The notes: generated by a model not told the origin, from the sequence alone. A DNA stretch of 23,469 nt from a virus (UHGV-0341897); one strand, 5' to 3'; shown: positions 1 through 22,697, counted from the first letter of the stretch. Numbers and translations are program-made.

Positions 1-156
1 CAGGTCAACATGCCAGCCGCCACCAACACCACCTGGATGACATGTGGCGATCCCTGTGATTCCGCACTGCGTATCTGGGGCGACACCGTTGTCGAGTGTG
101 TGCTTAACAAACTCTGCCCGTCGCATACCTACGTAATTTTTAAATATCCGGAGTAA
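1..156 (+). CDS. 3' end of an upstream phage tail/baseplate-region gene (partial, 5' end outside window)
   Basis: Frame 1 is open from position 1 to TAA at 154-156 (ends ...[13 protein letters not shown]) and sits immediately upstream of the tail-fibre ORF. Function inferred from position only. Confidence 0.35.
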
Positions 157-159
157 TCC

Positions 160-744
160 ATGCATCGTATAGACACGAAAACCGCGCAGAAGGATAAGTT
201 CGGCGCGGGTAAGAACGGTTTTACCCGTGGTAACCCCCAGACCGGCACACCTGCCACCGATCTGGATGATGACTACTTTGACATGTTGCAGGAGGAACTT
301 TGCAGTGTTGTGGAGGCATCCGGTGCCAGCCTGGAGAAGGGGCGGCATGACCAGCTGCTTACAGCGCTTCGTGCGCTGCTGTTAAGCCGCAAGAATCCGT
401 TTGGCGATATCAAATCGGATGGCACGGTGAAAACGGCTCTCGAAAACCTTGGTTTGGGAGAAGGTGCTAACTGGGTTATGTTACCTGGAGGAATGATAAT
501 TCAGCGTGTTTATCTTGGATTTCCTATTGGCACTAATGTAAGACATATAACTTTCCCCCGGTCGTTTACAACAACGAACTATTCCATCTCAATTAACTGG
601 AATGATATCGGTACTGTAACAACTGAAACACAATCACCAGCAAATGTGGCGGTTGTTCATCAAACAAAATCATTAACAGGGGCCAGCATCTGGCAGGCAG
701 GTCCCGGGGGATTTAATGTGGACATTATAGCGGTGGGGTATTGA
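160..744 (+). CDS. stfP: Side tail fibre protein, variable segment (StfP-like)
   Basis: 194-aa ORF starting [21 protein letters not shown]..., followed directly by a tail-fibre assembly gene. Resemblance to e14 StfP is recalled from memory, not searched. Confidence 0.65.
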
Positions 745-745
745 T

Positions 746-1174
746 ATGTACGTATGGAGCGCTAAAGCAAATGGCTTTTTCCCCATATCGGAGAAAGAAA
801 AATTTGAGGCATCAGGTCTGTGGCCTGATGATGGTGTAATAGTCAGTGAGGAAGAACATAAAAAGTTATTTATGGATATTCCACCAGGAAAACAGATTGG
901 AACACTGAATGGAAAACCAGCACTGATAGATATTCCTCAGCCGACCAAAAAGGAATTAATAGCTATTGCTGAAGTTAAAAAATCCCAATTACGGGAAAAG
1001 GCTGACAGTGAAATATCCTGGCGTCAGGATGCTGTTGATGCTGATATCGCAACTGATGAAGAAGCTACAACTCTCACCCAATGGAAGAAATACCGTGTGC
1101 TGCTGATGCGTGTTGATACGTCAACAGCACCCGATATTGAATGGCCTACGCCTCCGGCAGTTCAGGCCAGATGA
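746..1174 (+). CDS. tfaP: Tail fibre assembly protein (TfaP-like)
   Basis: 142-aa ORF starting 2 bp after stf, with the Tfa-type C-terminal motif DTSTAPDIEWP. Its 3' end overlaps the convergent tfa gene by 29 bp. Confidence 0.7.
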   Translation: MYVWSAKANGFFPISEKEKFEASGLWPDDGVIVSEEEHKKLFMDIPPGKQIGTLNGKPALIDIPQPTKKELIAIAEVKKSQLREKADSEISWRQDAVDADIATDEEATTLTQWKKYRVLLMRVDTSTAPDIEWPTPPAVQAR

Positions 1175-1739
1175 CATCCGGCGCGGTGCTGGTATCTGTT
1201 GCCGTCACCGCGTCAATGTAATCCAGCACGGCGTTAAGTCGGGTTGTTTCTGCCTGAGTCAGTTTCCGTCCGGCCTGTAATTTCAGCTGAATCAGACTAA
1301 TGGAAGCCATTGCTGCATCAATCAGTGACTGGCGCTGTGCTTCTGCCGCGTCTACTGCGGCACTGTGTTGTGCCTCAGTGTCTGTCACCCATTTCTCACC
1401 ATCCCATTTATCGTATGGCGTTAACGGTGAAAGCGTGACATAACCGTCTTTGATGGCACCGATATAATCCACTGTAACAGCTGCACCATTTTCGATTGAG
1501 TAAACAGTCTCATTGCGATGGTCTTCCTCATGGCTCCATCCCTTACCTGTAAATACCGTCACTCTTCCCAGAATGTTTTCGCCCGGGTCAATACCAGTTG
1601 AACAGGCGGGCATACTTACGCCAGTATTAATATATTCATCAGACCAGCCCGTATACTCAGATGTTTCAGCATCATAATAAAAACAACGCATATCGCCCGG
1701 CACTGTAGCCAGCCCATTTTCATCAAAAACAGGTTTCAT
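1146..1739 (-). CDS. tfaE: Tail fibre assembly protein (TfaE-like), convergent partner
   Basis: 197-aa ORF with the conserved Tfa C-terminal motif TDTSTAPDVIWP. It lies directly downstream of a fibre C-terminal segment on the minus strand. Confidence 0.75.
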   Translation of the reverse strand: MKPVFDENGLATVPGDMRCFYYDAETSEYTGWSDEYINTGVSMPACSTGIDPGENILGRVTVFTGKGWSHEEDHRNETVYSIENGAAVTVDYIGAIKDGYVTLSPLTPYDKWDGEKWVTDTEAQHSAAVDAAEAQRQSLIDAAMASISLIQLKLQAGRKLTQAETTRLNAVLDYIDAVTATDTSTAPDVIWPELPEA

Positions 1740-2221
1740 TATTTAGCCCTCACCAGAAAGTTAAATGCAATATTTCGCGGTCTGACAGCAACAAAATTCA
1801 CACCATCACCCACAGAGTTACTGGTGAAATTAAATCGTGAAAATCCTGGCTGATTTCCGGCGATGCCATCATGAAAGTTAATTGCGTGTCCCGCACCTTC
1901 GCCTATATTCCCGGCAAACTGAGAAAAGTTTGTAGCTGCCTGCCAGCTTAATAATTCGCGACCACCATCTGCACCTCGCCCGTCATCCCAGACACGAATG
2001 AAATCACCGCGTGCGTCAGGTAATGCCAACGCCGGAAACACTTTCGCCAGCACAGGGTAATCAGTGGCAGAAAATTTCGCCCCGTTGAACTTCAAAAACA
2101 CCATACTGGACCAGCTGTCGATTACAGTATTTGGCATTGCAGCGGACGCCCAGAAGAACGGAACGCCAATAGCTGGAGCACCTTCTCCCAAACTGCGATG
2201 GCTCACTGCTGATATGTGCAA
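1739..2221 (-). pseudogene. stfE: Side tail fibre C-terminal variable segment (StfE-like), without an N-terminal constant region
   Basis: 160-aa ORF ending ...RNIAFNFLVRAK, a Gly/Asn-rich fibre-tip sequence. The ORF track start is a TTG and no full-length fibre N-terminus lies upstream. This is the alternative module of an invertible-type cassette. Confidence 0.6.
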
Positions 2222-2415
2222 TCGACGGGGAGTTCAGGATCAAGCGATATCGGACTCATCCTCAACACCACCTGATTAATTTGGAGAGCGGGAGAAGGGA
2301 GATGCTACCAGTAGATGATGACGGTTACGGTTCTGCTCCCGCGATATTCGGGGTGATTACTTACATCATTAATGATGCGAGGAACGCGGAGTTTGATGAT
2401 TGTCCGGTGATGTAA

Positions 2416-3084
2416 TCATATTGGCGTTATTAGTTCGGCGCCCTGATTTTTCACATTCCCGACGGCACGCGTTACGGCGTGCCATATAAATTTATCAGCC
2501 GGTACAACACCGTCGGCTGCAATTTCCGCTGCTTCTTTCCCTCCAACATCCTGCCTCATCCATTCACGCGCGGCTTCCGGTAGCAGTACCAGTGGTCGTC
2601 TGTCGTGAATATCAACCAGTCCTTTGTCAGCTGCAGCTGTAACTATCAGGAAACCTTCTGCTTCATCTCCACGTTCGAATGGTGTGCTGCCGATCGCCGC
2701 CATAAAAATCGGCTGACCGTCTGCCCGGTGAATAAAGTAGGGTTGTTTTTGGTCGCCTTCCTTTTTCCACTCATACCATCCATCAGCAAAGCAAATTGCG
2801 CGGCCATGCTGCCAGAGTGGTTTAAACATTCTGCTGGTGGCAGCAGTTTCAGACCGTGCATTAATGAGCGGCGGTTTATCCCACCAACCGGGGGCGTATC
2901 CCCAGATAACTGGATCAAGATGCAACTGCTCATCACGTTCGCTCAGAAGCAGAACTTTTGTTCCTGGCGCTACGTTGAATCTTCCGATGGGTTCTGGATC
3001 GTATGGAATATCGCGTTCTGATTCATCAGCGAGAAGGGCAAGATAATCTTCACGGGTCATTGACTGTGAAAAGCGTCCACACAT
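2416..3084 (-). CDS. yedK: SOS-response-associated peptidase (SRAP; YedK/HMCES family, abasic-site processing)
   Basis: 222-aa ORF starting MCGRFSQ (the catalytic Cys2 signature of SRAP proteins), the same length as E. coli YedK. A GGAGG Shine-Dalgarno sits about 7 nt upstream of the ATG. Confidence 0.85.
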   Translation of the reverse strand: MCGRFSQSMTREDYLALLADESERDIPYDPEPIGRFNVAPGTKVLLLSERDEQLHLDPVIWGYAPGWWDKPPLINARSETAATSRMFKPLWQHGRAICFADGWYEWKKEGDQKQPYFIHRADGQPIFMAAIGSTPFERGDEAEGFLIVTAAADKGLVDIHDRRPLVLLPEAAREWMRQDVGGKEAAEIAADGVVPADKFIWHAVTRAVGNVKNQGAELITPI

Positions 3085-3318
3085 AGAAACCTCCAGCCGT
3101 ATGTCAGACTGAAAGTATAGGGCAGTTAGAAAAAGTGGTGCACACCGTTAAAGATTTAAAAGGAGCATGTAAGGTAAATCGGAATGATGGTTTTGTGAAT
3201 TGATGAATTCCGAAAGTGAAAAAGATACTTAATCATTGTGTGCTAGCGATACGGGGGCAACATTTGACGGGGTTTTTCCCCTGTAATTCCCCATTGCTTC
3301 CCCGTTCAGAAAACAGGC

Positions 3319-3349
3319 AAAAAAACCAGCCGTAACAGGCTGGTTCTTC
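3319..3349 (-). terminator. Rho-independent terminator immediately 3' of the tRNA-like fragment
   Basis: Minus strand reads AACCAGCC-tgttac-GGCTGGTT followed by TTTTTTT. Confidence 0.5.
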
Positions 3350-3358
3350 GAGGATTTT

Positions 3359-3410
3359 TGGTCAGCACGAGAGGATTTGAACCTCCGCCCCCGACACCCC
3401 ATAGCGGTGA
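3359..3410 (-). other. tRNA-Pro-like 3' half (T-arm, acceptor 3' strand and CCA; no 5' acceptor strand) - probable att-site remnant
   Basis: Minus strand reads ...CACCGCTATGGGGTGTCGGGGGCGGAGGTTCAAATCCTCTCGTGCTGACCA. It has a GGTTCAAATCC T-loop and terminal CCA and resembles E. coli proL as recalled from memory. No complementary 5' acceptor strand (CAGCACG) is found upstream. Confidence 0.5.
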
Positions 3411-3598
3411 TCTACCTTCTCATCAAGGGTAACCATGTGCCAGAAGCAGCCCTTGCGCACATTGGATGGGTATCAAATAATGAAGTAGGTCAACTTTATT
3501 AAATAAAATTGTGTTGGTTCAGATGATCGAATGGGAATGAATAGTTTATTACTTTTGGTGACCGCAAGCGCGATCACCTTCGATTTGGTGGCAATTAC

Positions 3599-4567
3599 CT
3601 AGAATGATGCACAATCTTTAAGCTCTTTTTCTAGTTGTTCAACCAAGTCACAGCATTTTTTGATAACATCTTTAACTGACTCTGAATCTAACTTATGAAA
3701 ATTACCATTTTTTGTTTTACCTGCTCGATGAACTAAGTCATGCCTAATTAACACGCTTTTATAAACTTCTGTGAAAACAGGGAATTTAATACCAAAGGTA
3801 TCTCGATACATGCCACTTACTTTTGGCAGATTATGATAAAGAACACTCTTCATAGACTCTATCGCTTGAGACTCTATTTGTTCATGCCTTATAAATAATT
3901 CAGAAAGTAAGAATTTTTCTGTATTGTAATCTTTGAAGGTTTCAACAAAATTTCTCAAATTAGTTTGGCTACCATGAATTAGGGAAATAAATCTGTCACA
4001 TAAATATGTTTCCAAGGAAGTTATTGTATTGGCATATAGCATATACGACATTTGTATTTGTAAAGTGCTATCAATTTTTAACTGAGCATCATTTAGTTTT
4101 ATGGCGTTCTGCATACTATTTTGGAATGTCATATAGACATCTCGTTCAGATAGCGTTCGATCATCAGAGTACTGCATATCAATAACATCTAGAATGCGCT
4201 GTTCAATTAATGAAGGTCTATTCAACTGTAATATATCTATAGTCGCATGTCCTCGCTCAGTTAAACCTTCTAAATATCCATTTTTATTTTGTTTTATATG
4301 TTCTGAAAAACTTTCATTTAAAGGATTTAGAAGTAATGGTTTGCCATTTTCATCGAGAGGAAACTGATCTTTTTTAATCATGCTACATGCCTTACAAGCG
4401 ATGAGCAGGTTGTCTGTAGCATCTTGGAAGTCAGTATACTTTGATTTTGGGAAAAAACGATCAACATCCGCCATCAATGGTTCATAAAGTTTAGTGCCAC
4501 AGTAAGCACATTGATGCTTAAACTTCTCCCATAGTTCAAGTTTAAACGTTTTATAATTCTTATTCAT
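3599..4567 (-). CDS. Orphan HNH-like zinc-finger nuclease-domain protein with a C-terminal helical domain carrying an Rx4HxR (HEPN-like) motif; candidate defence or restriction protein
   Basis: 322-aa ORF in a very AT-rich island. N-terminus has C-A-Y-C ... V-D-R-F-F-P ... D-N-L-L-I-A-C-K-A-C-S-M-I-K-K, an HNH/His-Me finger pattern with Arg where the catalytic His is expected. C-terminus has LIRHDLVHRAG. AAGGAA Shine-Dalgarno lies 8 nt upstream of the ATG. Confidence 0.75.
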   Translation of the reverse strand: MNKNYKTFKLELWEKFKHQCAYCGTKLYEPLMADVDRFFPKSKYTDFQDATDNLLIACKACSMIKKDQFPLDENGKPLLLNPLNESFSEHIKQNKNGYLEGLTERGHATIDILQLNRPSLIEQRILDVIDMQYSDDRTLSERDVYMTFQNSMQNAIKLNDAQLKIDSTLQIQMSYMLYANTITSLETYLCDRFISLIHGSQTNLRNFVETFKDYNTEKFLLSELFIRHEQIESQAIESMKSVLYHNLPKVSGMYRDTFGIKFPVFTEVYKSVLIRHDLVHRAGKTKNGNFHKLDSESVKDVIKKCCDLVEQLEKELKDCASF

Positions 4568-4640
4568 TGAATAGTTCCTTTATATTCTTGACTTGATTGT
4601 TTGTTTGCCAATTTAAGCCAAAGACACACGACTTTAATTG

Positions 4641-4676
4641 GGCTTGAATCATAGTTATATGTAATCTATTAAGCAA
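4641..4676 (-). promoter_or_regulatory. Putative sigma-70 promoter for the HNH-like gene
   Basis: Minus strand reads TTGCTT, a 17-nt spacer, then TATGAT, about 75 nt upstream of the ATG. Sequence-only prediction. Confidence 0.3.
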
Positions 4677-5011
4677 ACACTTTTCATTAATAGCATGAGA
4701 TAACGCTCAATTCTTTATTTTCCGGGAGTGTGTAACTTCATATCCACCTCTCACTCACAGCGTACGTTATTGGCGAAAAATTTAGTTAAGCCATTGATAG
4801 TTTGTGAAAACACGCATGATTTAAAATCCCTTTGCCGTGAAGGGGCTGATAGGTACAGGCACTTGTTTTTGCCCTCTAAAACGGTTATCAAAACCAAAAA
4901 ACATACATTGATAATCAATAGGTTAGGGGAAAGATAAAAGCCAGTTGATTTACAATAAAATTATAGGATTATTTTTATTTATCATGCGGTTGTATATGAA
5001 CCATCTAACTA

Positions 5012-5176
5012 CTGCTGCGCCATATGGGCTGGACTGAAGCCGCAGACCTGATTGTTAAAGGTATGGAAGGCGCAATCAACGCGAAGACCGTAACCTATGA
5101 CTTCGAACGTCTGATGGAAGGCGCTAAACTGCTGAAATGTTCAGAGTTTGGTGACGCGATCATCAAGAACATGTAA
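5012..5176 (+). pseudogene. icd: Isocitrate dehydrogenase 3'-terminal 165-bp segment (icdC-like att homology), not joined to an icd body
   Basis: Translation [54 protein letters not shown] matches the Icd C-terminus. An in-frame TAA lies immediately upstream, and the DNA further upstream is AT-rich and unrelated. Confidence 0.85.
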
Positions 5177-5199
5177 TCTCTACATGTGTTAAATATTGA

Positions 5200-5230
5200 A
5201 ACGGGCGTATAACACGCCCGTTGTTTTATG
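5200..5230 (+). terminator. Rho-independent terminator after the icd 3' segment
   Basis: Perfect 9-bp stem AACGGGCGT / ACGCCCGTT with loop ATAAC, followed by TTGTTTTAT. Confidence 0.65.
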
Positions 5231-9876: not shown

Positions 9877-10287
9877 TTAGTGATTGAGGCCGTTACCGCG
9901 TCCGTCGAGAAAAACTTCCACGAGCAAATCACGGGTATAAGTGCGCTCGATGCCGCGATGCAGATAAAGCCGTCCGCGTAAATTAGCTGATGCAGTCCAG
10001 GTACCATCTTTGTGTTTGACCAGCATTCCTGGCATGACCGCACCTCGATTAACGGTCTGCGTTCCGTAATGTTGATGAACCATAAAAACTCCTGCCCGTA
10101 AGCTGGGCTGCTGAACATATAGAGACTTCTGCGCGTATTCAGGCGGTGGATGGCCGCCGGTTGTCATAACTAAGCCGCCTCGTTGAAGCGACTGAGGTAT
10201 GAGGTGTTGAGTTGATTTCAGCTGGTCACACCGACGTTCACGCGTCCGCTTCACCCCTCGCACTCCCCGGAGCCTGCTGAAATTCAA
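9877..10287 (-). CDS. Hypothetical first gene of the leftward operon, with an arginine-rich N-terminal segment
   Basis: ORF track start is a TTG. N-terminus [10 protein letters not shown] resembles the lambda N arginine-rich motif, but the rest is unlike N. An internal ATG at 10167 would give a 96-aa product. Coding status is uncertain. Confidence 0.4.
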
Positions 10288-10353
10288 GCTGCGGATCTAA
10301 GCGGTCATCGCAACGGTGAATCAGGTGATTGCCGTATCGTTGTGTTGTTGCGA

Positions 10354-10405
10354 CATGGTGATAATAGCTATTGCTATTGACTATATCAATACTTATTGCT
10401 ATTGA
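10354..10405 (-). promoter_or_regulatory. Putative pL promoter with overlapping operator-like repeats (oL)
   Basis: Minus strand reads TTGATA, a 17-nt spacer, then TATTAT. The 17-bp inverted repeat TATTGACTATATCAATA and two copies of ATTGCTATTGA overlap it. Confidence 0.45.
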
Positions 10406-10529
10406 TTGATGTGTTTTGATATTAACTGTTTGATAGCAAAAAGAATTAATTTTGTGACTTGCATCGCATAGCGATAACTGAAGCGAGGTCGTGGTGGTTT
10501 TTTGAACGGTTTATGTGATGAGGGGAGGC

Positions 10530-10557
10530 AAAAGAAAACCCGGCACGACGGCCGGGG
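10530..10557 (-). terminator. Rho-independent terminator 3' of the 287-aa gene
   Basis: Minus strand reads CCCGGCC-gtcgt-GCCGGG followed by TTTTCTTTT, directly after the stop codon at 10561-10563. Confidence 0.55.
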
Positions 10558-10560
10558 AAA

Positions 10561-11424
10561 TCATTTCGCATCTACAATAAATAACCTGTTTATCTGGCCT
10601 TTTTTAACAGTAGCCTTTGCGGTTATAGTGAATACTGCAGATGGATCACCTTTGGTTGATATATATGCACTAAGAGCTCTAATATACGGGTTATTCTTCT
10701 TTCCTGCAGCTGGATCGCTAATTTCAGCAGTGATTCTCTTTTTTGAGTCATCACCATCTAAAATTATTTTAGCTGTCATATTTTGTGCATCAAATTCTGT
10801 AAGAAAAGCACGATACTCACGAAGACCGAGAACTTCATCATCATCAAGCCTATCAATTTCAGCTTTATCTCTCTCGTTAACTTTTAGAAGGCAGCCGTCA
10901 ACATTTGTTGCAACACTTATCTGATCGCAAGTATTACCAATAGGTGATACTGCCTGCCTTACAGAGGGGCGAAGCTCTACAGCCATTCGGTCAATCAAAG
11001 AGATCAACTTATCAATGGTTCCAGCATCCTTGTTTCCTAGTGCCTCTATGGCCTTTTCAAGTGACTGCTGCAAAGCTTTCATTTCATCTTTCTTGTTAGA
11101 ATTTCTCGCAAAAATATATTGTAGTATTGCGCCAAGTATAGTTGCGGCGATCCCCGAGAACAACTGGTTCTGAGTGGCGAAGTTAAGAACTGCTTCAAGA
11201 GTAAAGCAGTTAGCTTTTGCTTCGCGTGCGTAAACCTTAACTTCCTGATAATTAATGTATTTACTATATTTTTGTGTAACAGAGAAAGAAGCTGCTGTTG
11301 AGAGAACTTTAGAAAAACCCTTTAGGGATTCTCCTAGGCAGTTCAAATCTATTTCATGATTTAAAGCATCTTTTCCGTCATACCTAAGAGAGATTTTTAT
11401 ATCCTGTAAAGCGTCACAATCCAT
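10561..11424 (-). CDS. Uncharacterised 287-aa protein at the rexAB-equivalent position downstream of cI; candidate exclusion or abortive-infection protein
   Basis: Long AT-rich ORF 66 bp downstream of cI and co-oriented with it, ending at its own terminator before oL/pL. Contains one hydrophobic helix ([19 protein letters not shown]) followed by a charged coiled-coil-like stretch. No family recognised. Confidence 0.75.
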
Positions 11425-11490
11425 AAATCGCTCTCGTCTAATTCTAATTAAATTTACTATCCCCTAAACGACTCATCAGCACAGTACTGA

Positions 11491-12183
11491 TTATCCATGT
11501 TTCCTGTACGTCTGGGGCATGCTCCCAATAACCTTACCGAAGATGAACACCCGGTTCATCTCGTCTTTCTCGATCGGGTCCCACGGTGAGTAGCTCTTGT
11601 TATCAGAGATAACCAGCAGCTTATCCTTCATCATTTGCAGGCGCTTTACATGGGCGGTGTCGTCGTACAGAAACGCATAGATGCCATCACCGTCGAAAGA
11701 TTTAACCGTGATATCAACGAACAGAAGATCACCAGGTTCAATCGTTCCTGACATGCTGTCACCGCGTACGTTAATGATGCGGATATTTTCTGCCTTCCTA
11801 CCATCGAACATGTGACGAGCATCGTCAAACGAGTACTCAACCGAGCGTAGAACTTCTACAAACTCACGGTTGATGACTCCCGGCCCGGCACTCACTTCTA
11901 TATCAAGAACGTCAATCTTGAAGTATTTGGGATGGTTGGCAGTAGGCTTCCCTAATTGTTGACCGTCATTTCTCATCGGGCCTATGCCTGATGAGAGCCA
12001 CTCTGTTCGAACACCCAATGCATTAGCTATTTCAACAATTTTTGTTGAGCCGCGCGCGTTGCCGCTTGTCAGTCTCCAGATTGTGGGTTGAGCTACGCCA
12101 GACGCCTTTGCAAGAGCGCCTTGAGACATTCCAGATTGTTCCATCGCTAGGTTTAAGCGATCAGCAAGAGTTTCTTTTTTCAT
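11491..12183 (-). CDS. cI: Prophage repressor, cI-type (HTH-XRE plus LexA/S24-like autopeptidase domain)
   Basis: N-terminal helix-turn-helix (QGALAKASGVAQPTIWRL) and C-terminal S24 peptidase signatures (GDSM ... VKR). Start placed at the ATG for MKKETL (12183); the ORF track begins at an upstream TTG (12219). Divergent from cro. Confidence 0.9.
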   Translation of the reverse strand: MKKETLADRLNLAMEQSGMSQGALAKASGVAQPTIWRLTSGNARGSTKIVEIANALGVRTEWLSSGIGPMRNDGQQLGKPTANHPKYFKIDVLDIEVSAGPGVINREFVEVLRSVEYSFDDARHMFDGRKAENIRIINVRGDSMSGTIEPGDLLFVDITVKSFDGDGIYAFLYDDTAHVKRLQMMKDKLLVISDNKSYSPWDPIEKDEMNRVFIFGKVIGSMPQTYRKHG

Positions 12184-12293
12184 AAGTTTTAATTTATACG
12201 CTTGCGTATTGATGGTCAAAACACGTTTTGCTATTGCTGTGATTAATACGCATTGCTATTATTTATTCATTGTAATACCAATAGGAATTAATA
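12184..12293. promoter_or_regulatory. oR/pR/pRM-type divergent control region between cI and cro
   Basis: Contains the 14-bp inverted repeat ATACGCTTGCGTAT, two TTGCTATT-core repeats shared with the oL region, and a plus-strand TTGCTG, 17-nt spacer, TATTAT promoter about 30 bp upstream of cro. Confidence 0.55.
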
Positions 12294-14805: not shown

Positions 14806-15104
14806 CGGGCAAAGAGGCAATTATTCATTACCTGGGGACTCATAAGAACTTCTGTGCGCAGGACGTTGCCGCGGTAACAGGCGCAACCGTAACCAGCATA
14901 AATCAGGCTGCGGCTAAAATGGCGCGGGCAGGAATCCTGGTCGTTGATGGTAAGGTCTGGCGAACGGTGTATTATCGGTTCGCTACCAGAGAAGAACGGG
15001 AAGGAAAGGTGAGCGCGAATTTGATTTTTAAGGAGTGTCGCCAGAGTGCCGCGATGAAACGGGTATTGAGGGTATATAAAAGAACATCAATGGGTACACA
15101 ATGA
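14802..15104 (+). CDS. ren: Ren (Rex-exclusion protection protein)
   Basis: 100-aa ORF MTGKEAIIHYLGTHKNFCAQDVAAVTGATVTSINQAAAKMARAG..., matching lambda/DLP12 Ren from memory. Confidence 0.9.
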   Translation: MTGKEAIIHYLGTHKNFCAQDVAAVTGATVTSINQAAAKMARAGILVVDGKVWRTVYYRFATREEREGKVSANLIFKECRQSAAMKRVLRVYKRTSMGTQ

Positions 15105-15171
15105 TGAAACAGGTGAGTTGAGTTCAAACTGTAGTACAATTCTCTCCAGTTTGAACAGGAAAGAATATGCT

Positions 15172-15504
15172 ATGAACCCTTATATTTATCTTGGTGGTGC
15201 AATACTTGCAGAGGTCATTGGTACAACCTTAATGAAGTTTTCAGAAGGTTTTACACGGTTATGGCCATCTGTTGGTACAATTATTTGTTATTGTGCATCA
15301 TTCTGGTTATTAGCTCAGACGCTGGCTTATATACCTACAGGGATTGCTTATGCTATCTGGTCAGGAGTCGGTATTGTCCTGATTAGCATACTATCATGGG
15401 GATTTTTCGGCCAACGGTTGGACCTGCCAGCCATTATAGGCATGATGTTGATTTGTGCCGGTGTGTTGGTTATTAATTTATTGTCACGAAGCACACCACA
15501 TTAA
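15172..15504 (+). CDS. emrE: Small multidrug resistance efflux transporter EmrE
   Basis: 110-aa product from Met19 of the ORF track entry (MNPYIYLGGAILAEVIGTTLMKFSEGF...), with four hydrophobic helices. Matches E. coli EmrE, known from DLP12. Confidence 0.95.
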   Translation: MNPYIYLGGAILAEVIGTTLMKFSEGFTRLWPSVGTIICYCASFWLLAQTLAYIPTGIAYAIWSGVGIVLISILSWGFFGQRLDLPAIIGMMLICAGVLVINLLSRSTPH

Positions 15505-15759
15505 AAATAATTTATTTTTAAACGACTAAAATATGGAGGTTCGTATATTTGTATGGGCCTCGTTTTATGCTTTTTGTTAATGTCTTTAGTTTTTATTCAT
15601 TCTTTTGAACTTTCAAGATTATGGTGTAAGAAAATTGCAATACGATTATTGTTGTATATTCAAGATAATGTGACCTTAATTGTCTTTTTAAATAAAAATT
15701 AAACAAAAATCATATCTCACCACTAAGGTTTATAAAAGCATACTTTAGCAGGTGTCACC

Positions 15760-17286
15760 ATGAAAAAAGCCATAGCATATATGCGATTTTCATCACCAGG
15801 TCAGATGTCTGGTGATTCATTAAACCGCCAGAGAAGGCTTATTACTGAATGGCTAAAGGTAAATAGTGATTATTACCTTGATACCGTAACGTATGAAGAT
15901 TTGGGGTTAAGCGCATTCAATGGAAAGCATGCACAATCAGGAGCTTTTTCGGAATTTTTAGATGCTATAGAACATGGTTACATATTGCCAGGGACTACAT
16001 TGTTAGTTGAAAGTCTGGACAGACTTTCAAGAGAAAAAGTCGGTGAAGCGATTGAGCGTCTGAAATTGATTTTGAATCACGGTATTGATGTTATAACTCT
16101 TTGCGATAATACAGTCTATAATATAGACTCATTGAATGAGCCATATTCATTAATAAAAGCCATACTTATAGCACAAAGGGCAAATGAAGAAAGCGAGATA
16201 AAGTCAAGTCGGGTTAAATTATCATGGAAGAAAAAACGGCAGGATGCACTGGAATCAGGCACGATTATGACGGCGTCTTGTCCGAGATGGCTCTCATTGG
16301 ATGACAAAAGAACAGCTTTTATTCCAGACCCCGACAGGGTGAAAACGATTGAGCTAATTTTTAAACTCAGGATGGAAAGGCGATCATTGAATGCAATAGC
16401 TAAGTATTTAAATGATCATGCTGTAAAAAATTTTTCAGGAAAAGAAAGTGCATGGGGGCCTTCTGTAATTGAAAAATTATTAGCGAATAAAGCTCTGATA
16501 GGTATATGCGTACCTTCATATCGTGCAAGAGGGAAAGGGATAAGTGAAATCGCTGGCTATTATCCCAGAGTCATATCAGATGATTTGTTTTACGCTGTAC
16601 AGGAAATTCGGTTGGCACCTTTTGGTATTAGCAATAGTAGCAAGAATCCTATGCTAATAAATCTACTTCGAACAGTTATGAAGTGTGAGGCTTGTGGTAA
16701 TACCATGATTGTTCATGCGGTATCTGGACGTTTGCATGGCTATTATGTTTGTCCGATGAGAAGATTACATCGATGTGACAGGCCATCAATAAAAAGAGAT
16801 TTGGTTGATTATAATATCATTAATGAATTGCTTTTTAATTGTAGCAAAATTCAACCAGTTGAAAACAAGAAAGATGCTAATGAAACTTTAGAGTTAAAAA
16901 TTATTGAGCTTCAGATGAAAATTAATAATTTAATCGTTGCATTGTCTGTCGCGCCTGAAGTTACCGCTATAGCAGAGAAAATAAGACTATTAGATAAGGA
17001 ATTACGAAGGGCTTCGGTATCATTAAAAACTTTGAAGAGTAAAGGGGTGAGTTCACTTGGTGATTTTCATGCTATTGATTTAACTAGTAAAAATGGGCGA
17101 GAGCTATGTCGTACACTTGCCTATAAAATATTCGAAAAAATTATAATTAATACAGATAATAAAACCTGTGATATCTATTTTATGAATGGCATTGTTTTTA
17201 AACACTATCCTTTAATGAAAGTAATATCCGCCCAGCAGGCGATAAGCACTCTTAAATATATGGTTGATGGTGAGATTTATTTTTGA
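15760..17286 (+). CDS. ybcK: Large serine recombinase (resolvase/invertase-type catalytic domain; YbcK-like)
   Basis: 508-aa ORF with the N-terminal serine-recombinase motif AYMRFSSPGQ and a cysteine cluster (C-E-A-C ... C-P-M ... C-D) typical of the zinc-ribbon region. Flanked by AT-rich non-coding DNA. Confidence 0.85.
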   Translation: MKKAIAYMRFSSPGQMSGDSLNRQRRLITEWLKVNSDYYLDTVTYEDLGLSAFNGKHAQSGAFSEFLDAIEHGYILPGTTLLVESLDRLSREKVGEAIERLKLILNHGIDVITLCDNTVYNIDSLNEPYSLIKAILIAQRANEESEIKSSRVKLSWKKKRQDALESGTIMTASCPRWLSLDDKRTAFIPDPDRVKTIELIFKLRMERRSLNAIAKYLNDHAVKNFSGKESAWGPSVIEKLLANKALIGICVPSYRARGKGISEIAGYYPRVISDDLFYAVQEIRLAPFGISNSSKNPMLINLLRTVMKCEACGNTMIVHAVSGRLHGYYVCPMRRLHRCDRPSIKRDLVDYNIINELLFNCSKIQPVENKKDANETLELKIIELQMKINNLIVALSVAPEVTAIAEKIRLLDKELRRASVSLKTLKSKGVSSLGDFHAIDLTSKNGRELCRTLAYKIFEKIIINTDNKTCDIYFMNGIVFKHYPLMKVISAQQAISTLKYMVDGEIYF

Positions 17287-17610
17287 GTAATAATCACTTT
17301 TTCAACCGTGCTATGGTATGAAAGTAAAGTAACTACTATGATATTAACTATCTTGAACGAAGCGCCCTGAGCTATAGTTTTACTATAGGCACTGCCACTG
17401 GATGTTGGCATTCTCGCTCTAGTAGCTCAACAATACCCAATCACAAAACAATTCACTGATAACAAACTTTGTGCACGTGCTTAGTTATGGCGAACAGGTG
17501 ATGTTAACCTCCTGCCAGAATGCCACTCCACTTCATTAAGTATCTGAGCACCGAGAGGCTGGTCACGCCCCCATTAAAAATAATTTCTTTTGAATCGAGT
17601 GAAATAGGTT

Positions 17611-17638
17611 AGCCCGCATAAGTGCGGGCTGCTTTTTA
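17611..17638 (+). terminator. Rho-independent terminator (plus-strand sense) abutting the esterase stop codon
   Basis: Stem AGCCCGCA-taag-TGCGGGCT followed by GCTTTTTAC. Confidence 0.45.
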
Positions 17639-18679
17639 CAGGTCAGCGTTTGTTTTTTGTTGTTGGGTAGCGGTTTTTATGGGGGTTCCCAGGTTTTTAG
17701 TAAACCACTCAACAACTCTGTTTATAATAATTGGCTGATACCATGTATTATCACCATGCTCAGCCCCTTCTACCAGAACGTACTCAGCGTTATCGCCGTT
17801 CTTCTTCAACATCCTGAATAGTTTGGCGCTTTGCTCAGGTGAAACCAGAGTGTCTTTGCTACCATGCATAATAAGAAATGGGGGTTTTACTCCTTTCATA
17901 TGTCCGATTGGACTGGCGTTTAGCGCTTTTTCTTTTGACGCTGTGATGGGGGCTCCCGCAAAATTTCTGAATGCAGGGCCATTGATCATTAAGGCTTCGG
18001 TTACGGCAGGAGAGCGATGAACCTCCTGCACTGATTCAGGGAACCCCTCGCCAATATTCAACAAGTCAGAAATCCCATAAAGTGTGGCAACTGCCTGAAC
18101 ATCTGAGGATTGCTGAAGAAAGTCACCTTTATCAAAGGTTTTGTCACCATTTGTAGTTCCCATCATCTGAGCAAGCCATCCACCGGCAGAGTCACCCAGA
18201 ACTCCGATTCTTTGAGGATCAATCCCATAATTGCTGGCATGCTCTCTCAGGTAACGTATTGCAGCTTTTCCATCCTCAACTGGTGCTGGAAATGTATCAG
18301 GAATTGTTCTGTATTCTACAGCGGCCACAACAAAACCAGCTTCTGCCAGAGCCATTCTCATTTCAATAAATTTGTCATGTTCAGAAGACATGAATCCGCC
18401 GCCGGGATAATAAATAATGGCTGGTTTTAAATCATTTGTTCGCGGGACAAGAACTGACATGTGAAGCTGTCTGACAGAACGAGTTCCTTTTATCTGGGAA
18501 TAAACAACATCACCAATGAGATCGACCTGGTTTCTGGTCGGTGAAACACTAATGATATCTGCACCCGGGGTGTAACCAGGAAGATTAGTCTGGACAGGTG
18601 TTGCACAACTCCCGACCGACATGGCCATTGACATACCATACAATAGTGTTGCAGATGATAATATCTTGTTAATTTTCAT
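17636..18679 (-). CDS. Secreted alpha/beta-hydrolase esterase/lipase (Aes/HSL family), probable lipoprotein
   Basis: 347-aa ORF with a signal peptide ending in the lipobox-like SVGSC, the oxyanion motif YYPGGGF, and the catalytic-serine motif GDSAGG. Confidence 0.8.
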   Translation of the reverse strand: MKINKILSSATLLYGMSMAMSVGSCATPVQTNLPGYTPGADIISVSPTRNQVDLIGDVVYSQIKGTRSVRQLHMSVLVPRTNDLKPAIIYYPGGGFMSSEHDKFIEMRMALAEAGFVVAAVEYRTIPDTFPAPVEDGKAAIRYLREHASNYGIDPQRIGVLGDSAGGWLAQMMGTTNGDKTFDKGDFLQQSSDVQAVATLYGISDLLNIGEGFPESVQEVHRSPAVTEALMINGPAFRNFAGAPITASKEKALNASPIGHMKGVKPPFLIMHGSKDTLVSPEQSAKLFRMLKKNGDNAEYVLVEGAEHGDNTWYQPIIINRVVEWFTKNLGTPIKTATQQQKTNADL

Positions 18680-19126
18680 GTTTTACATGCCTTGACTTAT
18701 CGGATGAAATTCTCTTACTGAATTTAACGGCAGTTTAATAGCCGTACAACTCGTGGTAGCCAGGGAAATATCCCAGTCGTGGTTAAGGTTGTACTTGACG
18801 GCTATTATTTCAACAATGCTTAAAGTGAGAGCTTAAGGTTATGCGTATGTTTTACAGTCCGAGTAGATTCTGACCAATAGCTTCTTTGTATAATTCTGTC
18901 AGAAATAAATCTTGGCTTGCATGAAGTTTGAGACCTTATCTTGTTTGATTATGAATAATCAATTCGCCATAATTGTATCACCGGAGCCTGAACAACTCCG
19001 GTGACTTCTGCGCTAAACGGGGACGTTTATGCGCACACACAATCCAAACTCTCTTCTCCCTTCACAGATGCAGAAATGCACCTGCGTTTTTTTGCATCCA
19101 GCGTCTGACCTCTGTGGAGGTGAAGC

Positions 19127-21188: not shown

Positions 21189-22271
21189 TTAGAACTGATA
21201 AACCAGACCTACAGCGACGATGTCGTCGGTATCAATACCAGCTGTTTTGGTAAACTTACTATCGTCAATTAAGTTGATTTTGTAATCAACAAAAGTGGAC
21301 ATGTTTTTATTAAAGTAGTAAGTAGCACCGACATCGACATACTTGACTAAGTCTCGGTCACCATGAACACCAAGGTCTTTACCTTTTGACTGAAGGTAAG
21401 CAACAGATGGGCGCAGACCGAAGTCAAACTGATATTGTGCTACTGCTTCAAAGTTTTGTGCTTTGTTTGCAATATGGTTATTACCAAAAACGGTCATATT
21501 CTGAGTTTCAGAATATGTGGTAGCCAGATAGATATTGTTCGCATCATATTTCAGGCCTGCAGCCCATACTTCCGCATTTTTGCCGGAGGCATTGAATTTG
21601 CTCTTACCATAGGCGACCTGACCGTCAGTGCGATCTGATTTAGCATAGGTTGCACCCACGCCGAATCCTTCATACTCATAAGTAGTGGAGAAACCGAAAC
21701 CATCACCATTGGCTTCAGTTACGTCAGTGCGGTCATTTTTACCCTGATACTGAGCAGCAAAGTTCAGGCCATCGACCAGACCAAAGAAGTCGTTGTTACG
21801 ATAAGTTGCAACACCAGTAGTGCGACCAGTCATGAACACATCTGTTTGGGTCCAGGTATCACCACCGAATTCTGGCAGAACGTCAGTCCACGCACCGATG
21901 TCGTATGCTACACCGTAGTTACGGCCGTAATCGATTGAGCCGTAATCACCAAATTTCAGGCCTGCAAATGCAAGACGGGTTTTGTCTTTGGAAGAACCTT
22001 GAGATTCAGCACGGTTGCCTTTGAATTCATATTCCCACTGACCGAAACCAGTCAGTTGATCGTTGATTTGGGTTTCACCTTTGAAGCCAAGACGGGCATA
22101 AGTAGTATCACCATCATCTGCATCATTAGAGGAGAAGTAGTGCTTGGCATTAACTTTCCCGTATAGATCCAGCTTGTTACTGTCTTTATTATAAATTTCA
22201 GCTGCCTGAGCAGACATCGCCATCAGTACTGATGCAGCTACAGCAGAAATTGCCACTGTTAATTTTTTCAT
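21189..22271 (-). CDS. nmpC: Outer-membrane general porin (NmpC/OmpD, OmpC family), intact
   Basis: 360-aa product from the internal Met ([23 protein letters not shown] signal peptide, then AEIYNKD...). Ends ...VGLVYQF with the beta-barrel C-terminal Phe. Not interrupted by any insertion sequence. Confidence 0.9.
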
Positions 22272-22697
22272 TGTACGCCCTTTTTTTGAACTATTATTAA
22301 AAAATGATGTCACTGCGCGATAAATATTCATCTAATCAATGTGATTATTTCAAGATGTAAGTTTTAGTTTCTCATTTAATTTGTGAAGTAGATCTCTATT
22401 TTTATCTGAACCTTTTCTATCTAATCCTATTCATGGCTCTTGTTTGAACGAAAATAAATCTATTAGCTAATTTATATTAATGGCACTTATTTATAAGCGC
22501 TCTATAATTCTTTAGCTTAATTTAAACAAACTAAAAATAACATCGGAAATTATTCATTGGTTATTTGTTGAAGTTTTCTTATGTATTTGTGGTGGTGTTT
22601 TGAACACTCGGTGGCATTCTCACAAATATCATTTAGTAGTTTACGTACGTAAAAAATTGGTTATGCTGTTAAGAGTGGTTACTTCGTCACACAGCTT

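Follow-up and report, generated by a model that had tools for sequence, protein, structure and literature searches.

A DUF7946/DUF7947 protein encoded by an exchangeable cassette in a prophage repressor operon: anatomy, distribution, and a possible role in phage exclusion

The 23,469-nucleotide sequence of the virus UHGV-0341897, analyzed here over its whole length (the window), carries on its minus strand an ATG-initiated open reading frame (ORF) of 287 amino acids (aa) (10561..11424), identified by ORF calling and Pfam as a DUF7946 and DUF7947 protein orthologous to protein 40A of phage phi80. It is located directly downstream of, and on the same strand as, a cI-type repressor gene (11491..12183; the 230-aa form given by RefSeq, where it is annotated as an XRE-family regulator), whose ORF is open further back, to a TTG at 12219 (11491..12219), and whose HTH_3 and Peptidase_S24 domains are those of a CI/LexA-type repressor. 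The 66-nucleotide (nt) leader between the cI stop codon and the ATG (11425..11490, minus) harbors, according to a consensus scan, neither a sigma-70-like promoter nor a terminator on the minus strand, while a GAGAG motif is situated 6 nt ahead of the ATG. Because the two genes share a strand and are separated by only this spacer, with no signal between them, co-transcription with cI is the natural reading, from which expression in the lysogen would follow. At the distal end, an intrinsic terminator identified by scanning and folding (10529..10556, minus) starts 2 to 4 nt past the stop codon of the gene and comprises a 6-bp GC stem (CCCGGC/GCCGGG at 10556..10539), a 6-nt loop, and a T-run (TTTTCTTTTG), its 61-nt context folding at -19.1 kcal/mol (z = -3.2 versus shuffles). 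The GC content of the ORF is 38.4%, compared with 48.1% for cI and 52.2% for exo-bet-gam (the Red genes). A first-pass annotation, generated by a model from the sequence alone, had described an ORF on the cI strand, a gap of 66 bp after cI, marked AT-richness relative to the Red genes, and a hairpin and T-run terminator before oL/pL, and each of these observations was borne out. The gene occupies the cI-to-oL slot, which holds rexAB in lambda and bstA in BTP1.

The gene and its leader constitute an exchangeable cassette of ~935 bp (10557..11491, minus), as delimited by two homology breakpoints. The flanking sequences are 97-99% identical in Lambda_4C10, Perceval, and the icd-integrated prophage of Escherichia coli FEX669 (blastn versus L097, L098, and L004); on the left, identity to these relatives runs to 10556/10558, i.e., through the terminator stem, and on the right it restarts at 11492, inside the cI stop codon, so that the leader is part of the cassette and not of the backbone. 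As the homology with phages bearing other cargo spans its stem, the terminator is a shared-backbone element rather than the gene's own, as had initially been stated, and by analogy it would play the role of tImm, the terminator of the lambda immunity operon. The 287-aa gene is an operon-embedded cassette and not a moron in the strict sense, which would have its own promoter and terminator.

The same slot accommodates a range of other genes. In 4C10 and FEX669 it is occupied by a 1.5-kb gene pair matching PADLOC PDC-M11A and PDC-M11B/ASCH (2.9e-133 and 6.8e-52), and in Perceval by genes for a 340-aa protein and a 168-aa "transmembrane protein," with no family matches for either. An evenly spaced sample of flank-sharing E. 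coli genomes (hits H53-H90) added further occupants, including ImmA/IrrE with DUF4411, DUF6932, a Panacea-domain protein, a HipA-family kinase with DUF3037, and a BamE-like lipoprotein, while some spans fit only ~150 bp of cargo and represent a nearly empty slot. At least seven cargo types besides the DUF7946 gene are, thus, found between cI and the terminator, several of which have, by their domain content, a toxin-antitoxin or defense-module make-up. The slot is, on this evidence, a hypervariable cargo site like the lambda rexAB and BTP1 bstA loci, and the study on BstA describes the cI-N region as a hotspot of mosaicism under the control of a lysogenic promoter with high transcription (PMC8585504). 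In Erwinia sp. CGal63, a Tlde1-domain protein (an L,D-transpeptidase-like toxin domain) is encoded between the repressor and the DUF7946 gene (L005, 4188-4721), and the slot can, therefore, stack cargo.

The leader retains a trace of how the cassette has moved. At many loci, the DUF7946 gene is preceded by a 27-nt motif, CAGTGGCCTGAAGAGACGTTTGGGTGA, located 1 to 6 nt past the stop codons of unrelated resident repressors. It corresponds to the 3' end of lambda cI (CAGTGGCCTGAAGAGACGTTTGGCTGA, encoding ...ASQWPEETFG*), and in a few loci this sequence still forms the true end of the repressor ORF. In the window, a motif scan detects the relic in degenerate form (...QWPEETFG*; 11460..11486, minus), lying 5 nt past the resident cI stop and matching at 19/27 positions, as opposed to 26/27 in phi80 (L001), where two copies lie upstream of 40A, and 27/27 in L046; it was also noted in L051, L062, L066, L078, and L084. 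The relic speaks for a long shared history, the cassette having evidently been transferred to new repressor genes along with the tail of a former one. Regarding the question of a self-immunity element like that of BstA (aba, a DNA element overlapping the 5' end of the gene), the leader does move with the cassette, but its conserved part is explained as the cI 3' relic. A hammerhead-like RNA, considered on account of a CTGATGAG...GAAA-like motif in the leader, was ruled out for the same reason, the motif being the lambda-type cI 3' end, and a search of the leader against Rfam returned no family at the gathering threshold or at E <= 10.

The initial statement that the protein matches nothing was, by contrast, incorrect. 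Pfam recognizes DUF7946 (PF25678) over aa 11-191 (3.8e-55, 187.2 bits; cutoff 27) and DUF7947 (PF25679) over aa 201-287 (1.4e-18, 67.1 bits; cutoff 27), in this N-to-C order, and 41/41 aligned homologs match both models. PHROG 5147, to which PHROGs assigns no function, is matched over positions 1-287 of 287 (E = 1.5e-178), and the identical RefSeq protein WP_000340376.1 is annotated as "DUF7946 domain-containing protein." The orthologous phi80 protein 40A (PHI80_46, AFV29182.1; 40A/40B in X13065) shows 62% identity across 99% of the length, contains both Pfam domains, and is encoded at the same cI-to-oL/pL position on the cI strand with a cI-tail relic upstream, whereas the repressor and backbone of phi80 differ from those of the window, its leader measures 133 nt, and ~300 nt precede oL. 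A GenBank note assigning 40A to the "acetate kinase superfamily" is without Pfam support.

Among 1.84 billion cluster representatives (50% identity clusters), a profile search identified 495 relatives, 98 of which scored at E <= 1e-30, and those listed are almost all ~270-300 aa in length and match over both domains. The named sources include Klebsiella, Enterobacter, Serratia, Raoultella, Citrobacter, Proteus, Providencia, Morganella, Neisseria, Vitreoscilla, Chromobacterium, and Mannheimia, and a near-identical full-length copy is present in 77 of 5,426 complete E. coli genomes (~1.4%). In 50,697 deposited phage records, no cultured phage other than phi80 carries the family, and tblastn with distant members placed the family, within deposited phage genomes, only in phi80 and in one prophage record (L002) attributed to Helicobacter pametensis NCTC12888. 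The member encoded by the latter is 50% identical, is not adjacent to a repressor, and lies near a KilA-N gene; the assignment to Helicobacter looks odd for a protein so close to enterobacterial ones. The searchable papers, which did not include the phi80 genome paper, make no mention of DUF7946, DUF7947, PDC-S42 (a candidate defense cassette considered below), the protein accessions, or phi80 40A, and neither they nor the phi80 annotation give a function for 40A. The family is a catalogued and widespread but functionally unstudied one, of which phi80 40A is the oldest known member.

Comparison with orthologs of ~90% identity yielded a ratio of nonsynonymous to synonymous substitution rates (dN/dS) of 0.05-0.06 at a dS of ~0.9, and the ORF is, therefore, a real and strongly constrained gene. 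Single-base indels truncate it in 3 of ~38 E. coli viral-contig copies (L048, L049, and L055; IMG/VR), and an IS1 element is present within the matched 1.1-kb region in two E. coli genomes (hits H28 and H34); such copies could mean that a costly gene has been inactivated or that the sequences contain errors.

The linkage between the family and prophage repressors was assessed using 8 loci taken from the genomes of species representatives and a further 79 from IMG/VR, together with a repressor hidden Markov model built from eight repressors (seven Pfam-confirmed HTH-S24 proteins and the annotated phi80 CI). At ~80 of ~89 loci, an HTH-S24 repressor is encoded directly upstream in the same orientation. 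When reduced to 17 DUF7946 clusters (90% identity) and 24 repressor clusters (60%), the set comprises 33 non-redundant combinations, 27 of which, across Proteobacteria, have the co-oriented repressor directly upstream, and the DUF7946 cluster of the window alone follows no fewer than 7 repressor clusters. More distant members (~35% identity), found in uncultured sources, likewise represent the last gene of a divergent cro/S24-repressor operon. In Chromobacterium, the gene is inverted and, although it lies within the early region of the prophage, does not follow the repressor. Judged from these gene neighborhoods, the repressor linkage goes well beyond co-inheritance.

The fold of the protein was predicted with AlphaFold2 using alignments of 24 and 41 sequences (mean predicted local distance difference test [pLDDT] score, 78; predicted template modeling [pTM] score, 0.6). 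The model contains a strand (residues 10-16), a long helix (27-50), a low-confidence stretch (51-89), four further helices (91-108, 112-128, 134-150, and 152-158), and a beta-rich C-terminal part (165-287) with a pLDDT of ~90. The model divides into three predicted parts: an N-terminal strand-helix module, a helical bundle that includes a hydrophobic helix rich in Gly and Ala, and an OB-fold at the C terminus. The first of these carries the conserved motif RYDGxDAxxHxIxLxxLGxSLxG and is common to PHROG 3243, PHROG 13337, and NCBIfam LAPAL_fam, which are equally uncharacterized. The last was recognized, through structural comparison of the predicted model, as a five-stranded OB-fold barrel, its top structural neighbors being the periplasmic OB proteins SilF/CusF and YgiW. 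Beyond this, sequence searching of the PDB gave chance-level matches only, Foldseek retrieved nothing from the PDB at E <= 1e-3, and a BFVD structure search returned only uncharacterized phage proteins.

The single hydrophobic helix noted in the first-pass annotation was confirmed at residues 88-106, a small-residue-rich segment with a 19-residue Kyte-Doolittle window value (KD19) of 1.85, which has a K/R-rich stretch after it and packs against two amphipathic helices; helices at residues 112-158 follow. Its transmembrane grade is, however, not a family-wide property. Among the closer homologs, 39/41 reach a KD19 of >= 1.6 at this segment, with 3-4 K/R residues after and 0-1 before it, and the weak Pfam matches of family members are to families that combine a transmembrane helix with a coiled coil. 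Neither Pfam nor the family alignment revealed an enzymatic domain or universally conserved catalytic residues. A candidate catalytic Cys-His-Asp site (D16/H23/C73) was ruled out, as distant members have other residues in place of H23 and C73.

With respect to known systems, the 287-aa gene resembles lambda rexA/rexB in occupying a co-oriented slot downstream of cI that is ended by a terminator before oL, and the two may share a logic, proposed here by analogy, in which a cytoplasmic sensor is combined with a membrane-active part. They differ in that a single gene is present here and two in lambda, and in that at most one hydrophobic helix is present here whereas RexB is a multi-pass protein; the Rex families gave no Pfam or PADLOC match at E <= 1. 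A likeness to BstA of BTP1 is also apparent, this being the product of a single, lysogen-expressed gene directly downstream of a prophage repressor, a linkage which is retained across Gram-negative bacteria (PMC8585504). The KilA-N and BstA models to which the first-pass annotation had pointed nevertheless show no similarity, with no KilA-N match in Pfam at E <= 1 and no BstA match in PADLOC.

The only match in PADLOC is to PDC-S42 (aa 9-127 versus profile positions 4-113 of 302; E = 1.5e-4, 19.3 bits), a profile that is matched by 31/41 family members with a best E-value of 3e-8. PDC systems are a set of 145 untested candidates delineated through "guilt-by-embedding" in BREX, DISARM, and type I restriction-modification loci (bioRxiv 10.1101/2024.01.29.577857). 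Although PDC-S42 is similar in overall size, the C-terminal half of the 287-aa protein is unmatched, and the resemblance is best interpreted as that of a related N-terminal module of ~115 residues, and not as membership. Because PDC-S42 was defined from cassettes embedded in defense loci rather than in prophage immunity regions, it offers a weak association with defense that is independent of the prophage context. PADLOC detected no similarity to any validated system, and by these comparisons the protein belongs to no characterized defense family.

The position in the repressor operon, the nature of the other slot occupants, the PDC-S42 link, the strong constraint, and the non-enzymatic, binding-plus-helical architecture together argue for an anti-phage role. 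It is proposed that the gene is horizontally exchanged cargo forming the distal end of the repressor operon of the prophage, where it would be transcribed with cI, probably from pRM in the lysogen, until transcription stops at the backbone terminator ahead of oL/pL. The OB-fold domain of the product would recognize a component of an invading phage, upon which the hydrophobic, helical module would act at the inner membrane, either oligomerizing or inserting such that the membrane potential collapses, or else obstructing entry. The net result would be a one-polypeptide functional analog of RexA plus RexB which protects the lysogen. This explanation as a whole, i.e., a lysogen-expressed, non-enzymatic anti-phage protein that acts by exclusion or abortive infection through OB recognition followed by membrane action, is the one we favor, tentatively and in the knowledge that it may well fail in one or more of its parts; the exclusion function is one that we infer from position and remote association. 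The positional argument put forward in the first-pass annotation was sound and is now much better supported.

Phi80 offers a possible connection to a phenotype. T4 does not plate on phi80 lysogens and the P1 yield is ~10-fold lower, with the responsible gene not being named (PMC2885432). The Tai defense of phi80, which targets tail assembly of lambdoid phages, is encoded by orf63, with orf64 providing a counter-defense (PMC11364771); the possibility that 40A is Tai was rejected on this basis. A more specific and rather doubtful extension of the proposal is that DUF7946/DUF7947 proteins represent a widespread and repressor-coupled abortive infection or exclusion system in a single polypeptide that lacks an enzymatic domain, composed of an OB-fold sensor and a conditionally membrane-active helical module, and that 40A is the phi80 determinant of the complete T4 block, perhaps also of the interference with P1.

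Several findings weigh against the favored explanation. Only 50/107 full-length representatives reach a KD19 of >= 1.6, distant members being charged at the segment, and AlphaFold2 packs the hydrophobic helix into a bundle, so that a constitutive membrane anchor is uncertain. Were the helix to span the membrane, the positive-inside rule would predict a periplasmic N-terminal domain of 87 residues, highly charged and lacking a signal peptide, which would be unusual. The OB domain is not consistently basic (median isoelectric point, 5.35), and nucleic-acid sensing is, therefore, without support; nucleic-acid binding by this domain was rejected as a candidate activity on grounds of charge. A weak match to NCBIfam LAPAL_fam (26 bits versus a cutoff of 60) bears the label "putative phage structural protein." PDC-S42 and PDC-M11 are themselves untested candidates, and the match to the former is partial. 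HK106 infects phi80 delta-tai lysogens normally (PMC11364771), and 40A, if a defense, is therefore without visible effect on this phage, HK106 being the only lambdoid phage for which normal infection is stated explicitly in the accessible part of that text. Finally, literature searches by family, accessions, and 40A found no experiment on any family member.

The main rival, which we regard as unlikely, is superinfection exclusion at genome entry without cell death, whereby a constitutive single-pass inner membrane protein at or near the DNA-entry route would block injection by binding either a host channel or an ejection or tape-measure protein. HK97 gp15 and P22 SieA are precedents for exclusion by blocking entry. 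The conserved hydrophobic helix with its K/R-rich C-terminal flank in the enterobacterial clade, the lack of an enzymatic domain, and the periplasmic location of the OB neighbors SilF/CusF and YgiW are all consistent with such a function, as is the precedent of the single-gene defense SNIPE, in which one transmembrane helix joins an N terminus in the periplasm to a cytoplasmic body and which acts during injection (PMC13190303). The 287-aa protein, whose possible topology is similar, would then resemble SNIPE minus its nuclease: SNIPE contains DUF4041 and a GIY-YIG nuclease, neither of which is present here, and its helix is located within the first 70 residues. The absence of family-wide transmembrane character and the normal infection of phi80 delta-tai lysogens by HK106 count against an entry block. 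Moreover, the family is under strong constraint and yet occurs in hosts whose phages and receptors differ greatly (Enterobacterales, Pasteurellaceae, Neisseria, and Chromobacterium), for which a conserved intracellular target fits better than the fast-changing entry apparatus.

A function internal to the prophage, such as the tuning of CI level or cleavage, of induction, or of the lysis-lysogeny switch, is improbable. RexA has been reported to influence the switch of lambda, and the exceptionally tight and ancient coupling to S24 repressors of many types, the cI 3'-end remnant held in the cassette, and the strong purifying selection could all be accommodated by such a role. The same repressor and backbone, however, work with entirely different cassettes or with a near-empty slot, which makes the gene dispensable for both immunity and induction. 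That the family pairs with no fewer than 24 unrelated repressor clusters speaks against a specific partnership between the two proteins, and the inverted Chromobacterium copy is not behind the repressor.

We consider it just as improbable that the gene is a lysogenic-conversion factor, using the strong lysogenic promoter to confer a host benefit unrelated to phages, for example, envelope stress tolerance, colonization, or serum resistance. Its expression context alone would suit this purpose, lambdoid prophages carry conversion genes such as bor and lom, and an iss gene and an ompC-like porin are found in this prophage family. Set against this, other occupants of the slot resemble toxin-antitoxin or defense modules, the N-terminal half has a remote relative in a cassette embedded in defense operons, and the family spans hosts of very different lifestyles. 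That the ORF is decaying, non-functional, or a chance reading frame within AT-rich DNA, as its low GC content and the indel- and IS1-bearing copies might suggest, has a negligible likelihood and is already effectively refuted by a dN/dS of ~0.05 at near-saturated synonymous divergence and by the 495 clusters which keep the two-domain architecture, in addition to the confidently predicted fold.

The prophage is a lambda-like one of E. coli. Operator repeats and a pL-like promoter, identified through promoter scanning and motif clusters, occupy 10361..10404 (minus), the promoter (TTGATA-17-TATTAT; 10389..10361, minus) having 10/12 consensus matches. Six of the seven window matches to a 10-nt motif, ATTGCTATTG, fall into two clusters, at 10364-10404 (oL) and 12227-12288 (oR), the latter being positioned between cI and a divergent cro-like gene within a region (12191..12288; motif and promoter scans) that also includes a pRM-like -35/-10 pair. 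This pair, TTGACC-17-TAAATT, ends 7 nt before the annotated cI ATG (12183), and because its -10 element is so close to the start codon, the pRM transcript may be leaderless or nearly so, as in lambda. The first ORF past pL is kil-like (9877-10287, minus) and in its long form opens with an arginine-rich stretch of 10 residues; RefSeq gives a 207-nt kil only, and Perceval a 420-nt Kil. An N-like antiterminator is not annotated between pL and kil (10288-10360) in this phage group.

Elsewhere in the window (~15100-18700 and 21189-22331), AT-rich cargo of the nin region encodes an emrE-like SMR transporter, a ybcK-type recombinase, and an alpha/beta hydrolase, and the prophage-borne ompC-like porin gene adjoins that of a Q-type antiterminator. 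Positions 1-5229, to the left of the integrase, differ from most relatives, which carry icd there, and match a second, e14-like element remnant with tail-fiber assembly genes, a recombinase, an SOS-response-associated peptidase, an S24 peptidase, an HNH endonuclease, and an icd-family fragment. This arrangement is shared, over at least 80% of its length, by only 2 of the 5,426 complete E. coli genomes.

Whatever the function of the gene, the homology breakpoints and the cI-tail relic provide a clean picture of cargo exchange behind repressor genes, and the alternative occupants of the slot are a source of further candidates. If the gene does serve in defense, it would be a new variant of the repressor-operon exclusion genes and, as such, not surprising in kind; it would nonetheless add a new protein architecture to the few repressor-operon defenses (RexAB and BstA) and could explain the published failure of T4 to plate on phi80 lysogens. 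It would also provide the first function for a catalogued family of ~495 clusters, which extends from E. coli to Klebsiella, Serratia, Morganella, Mannheimia, and Neisseria.

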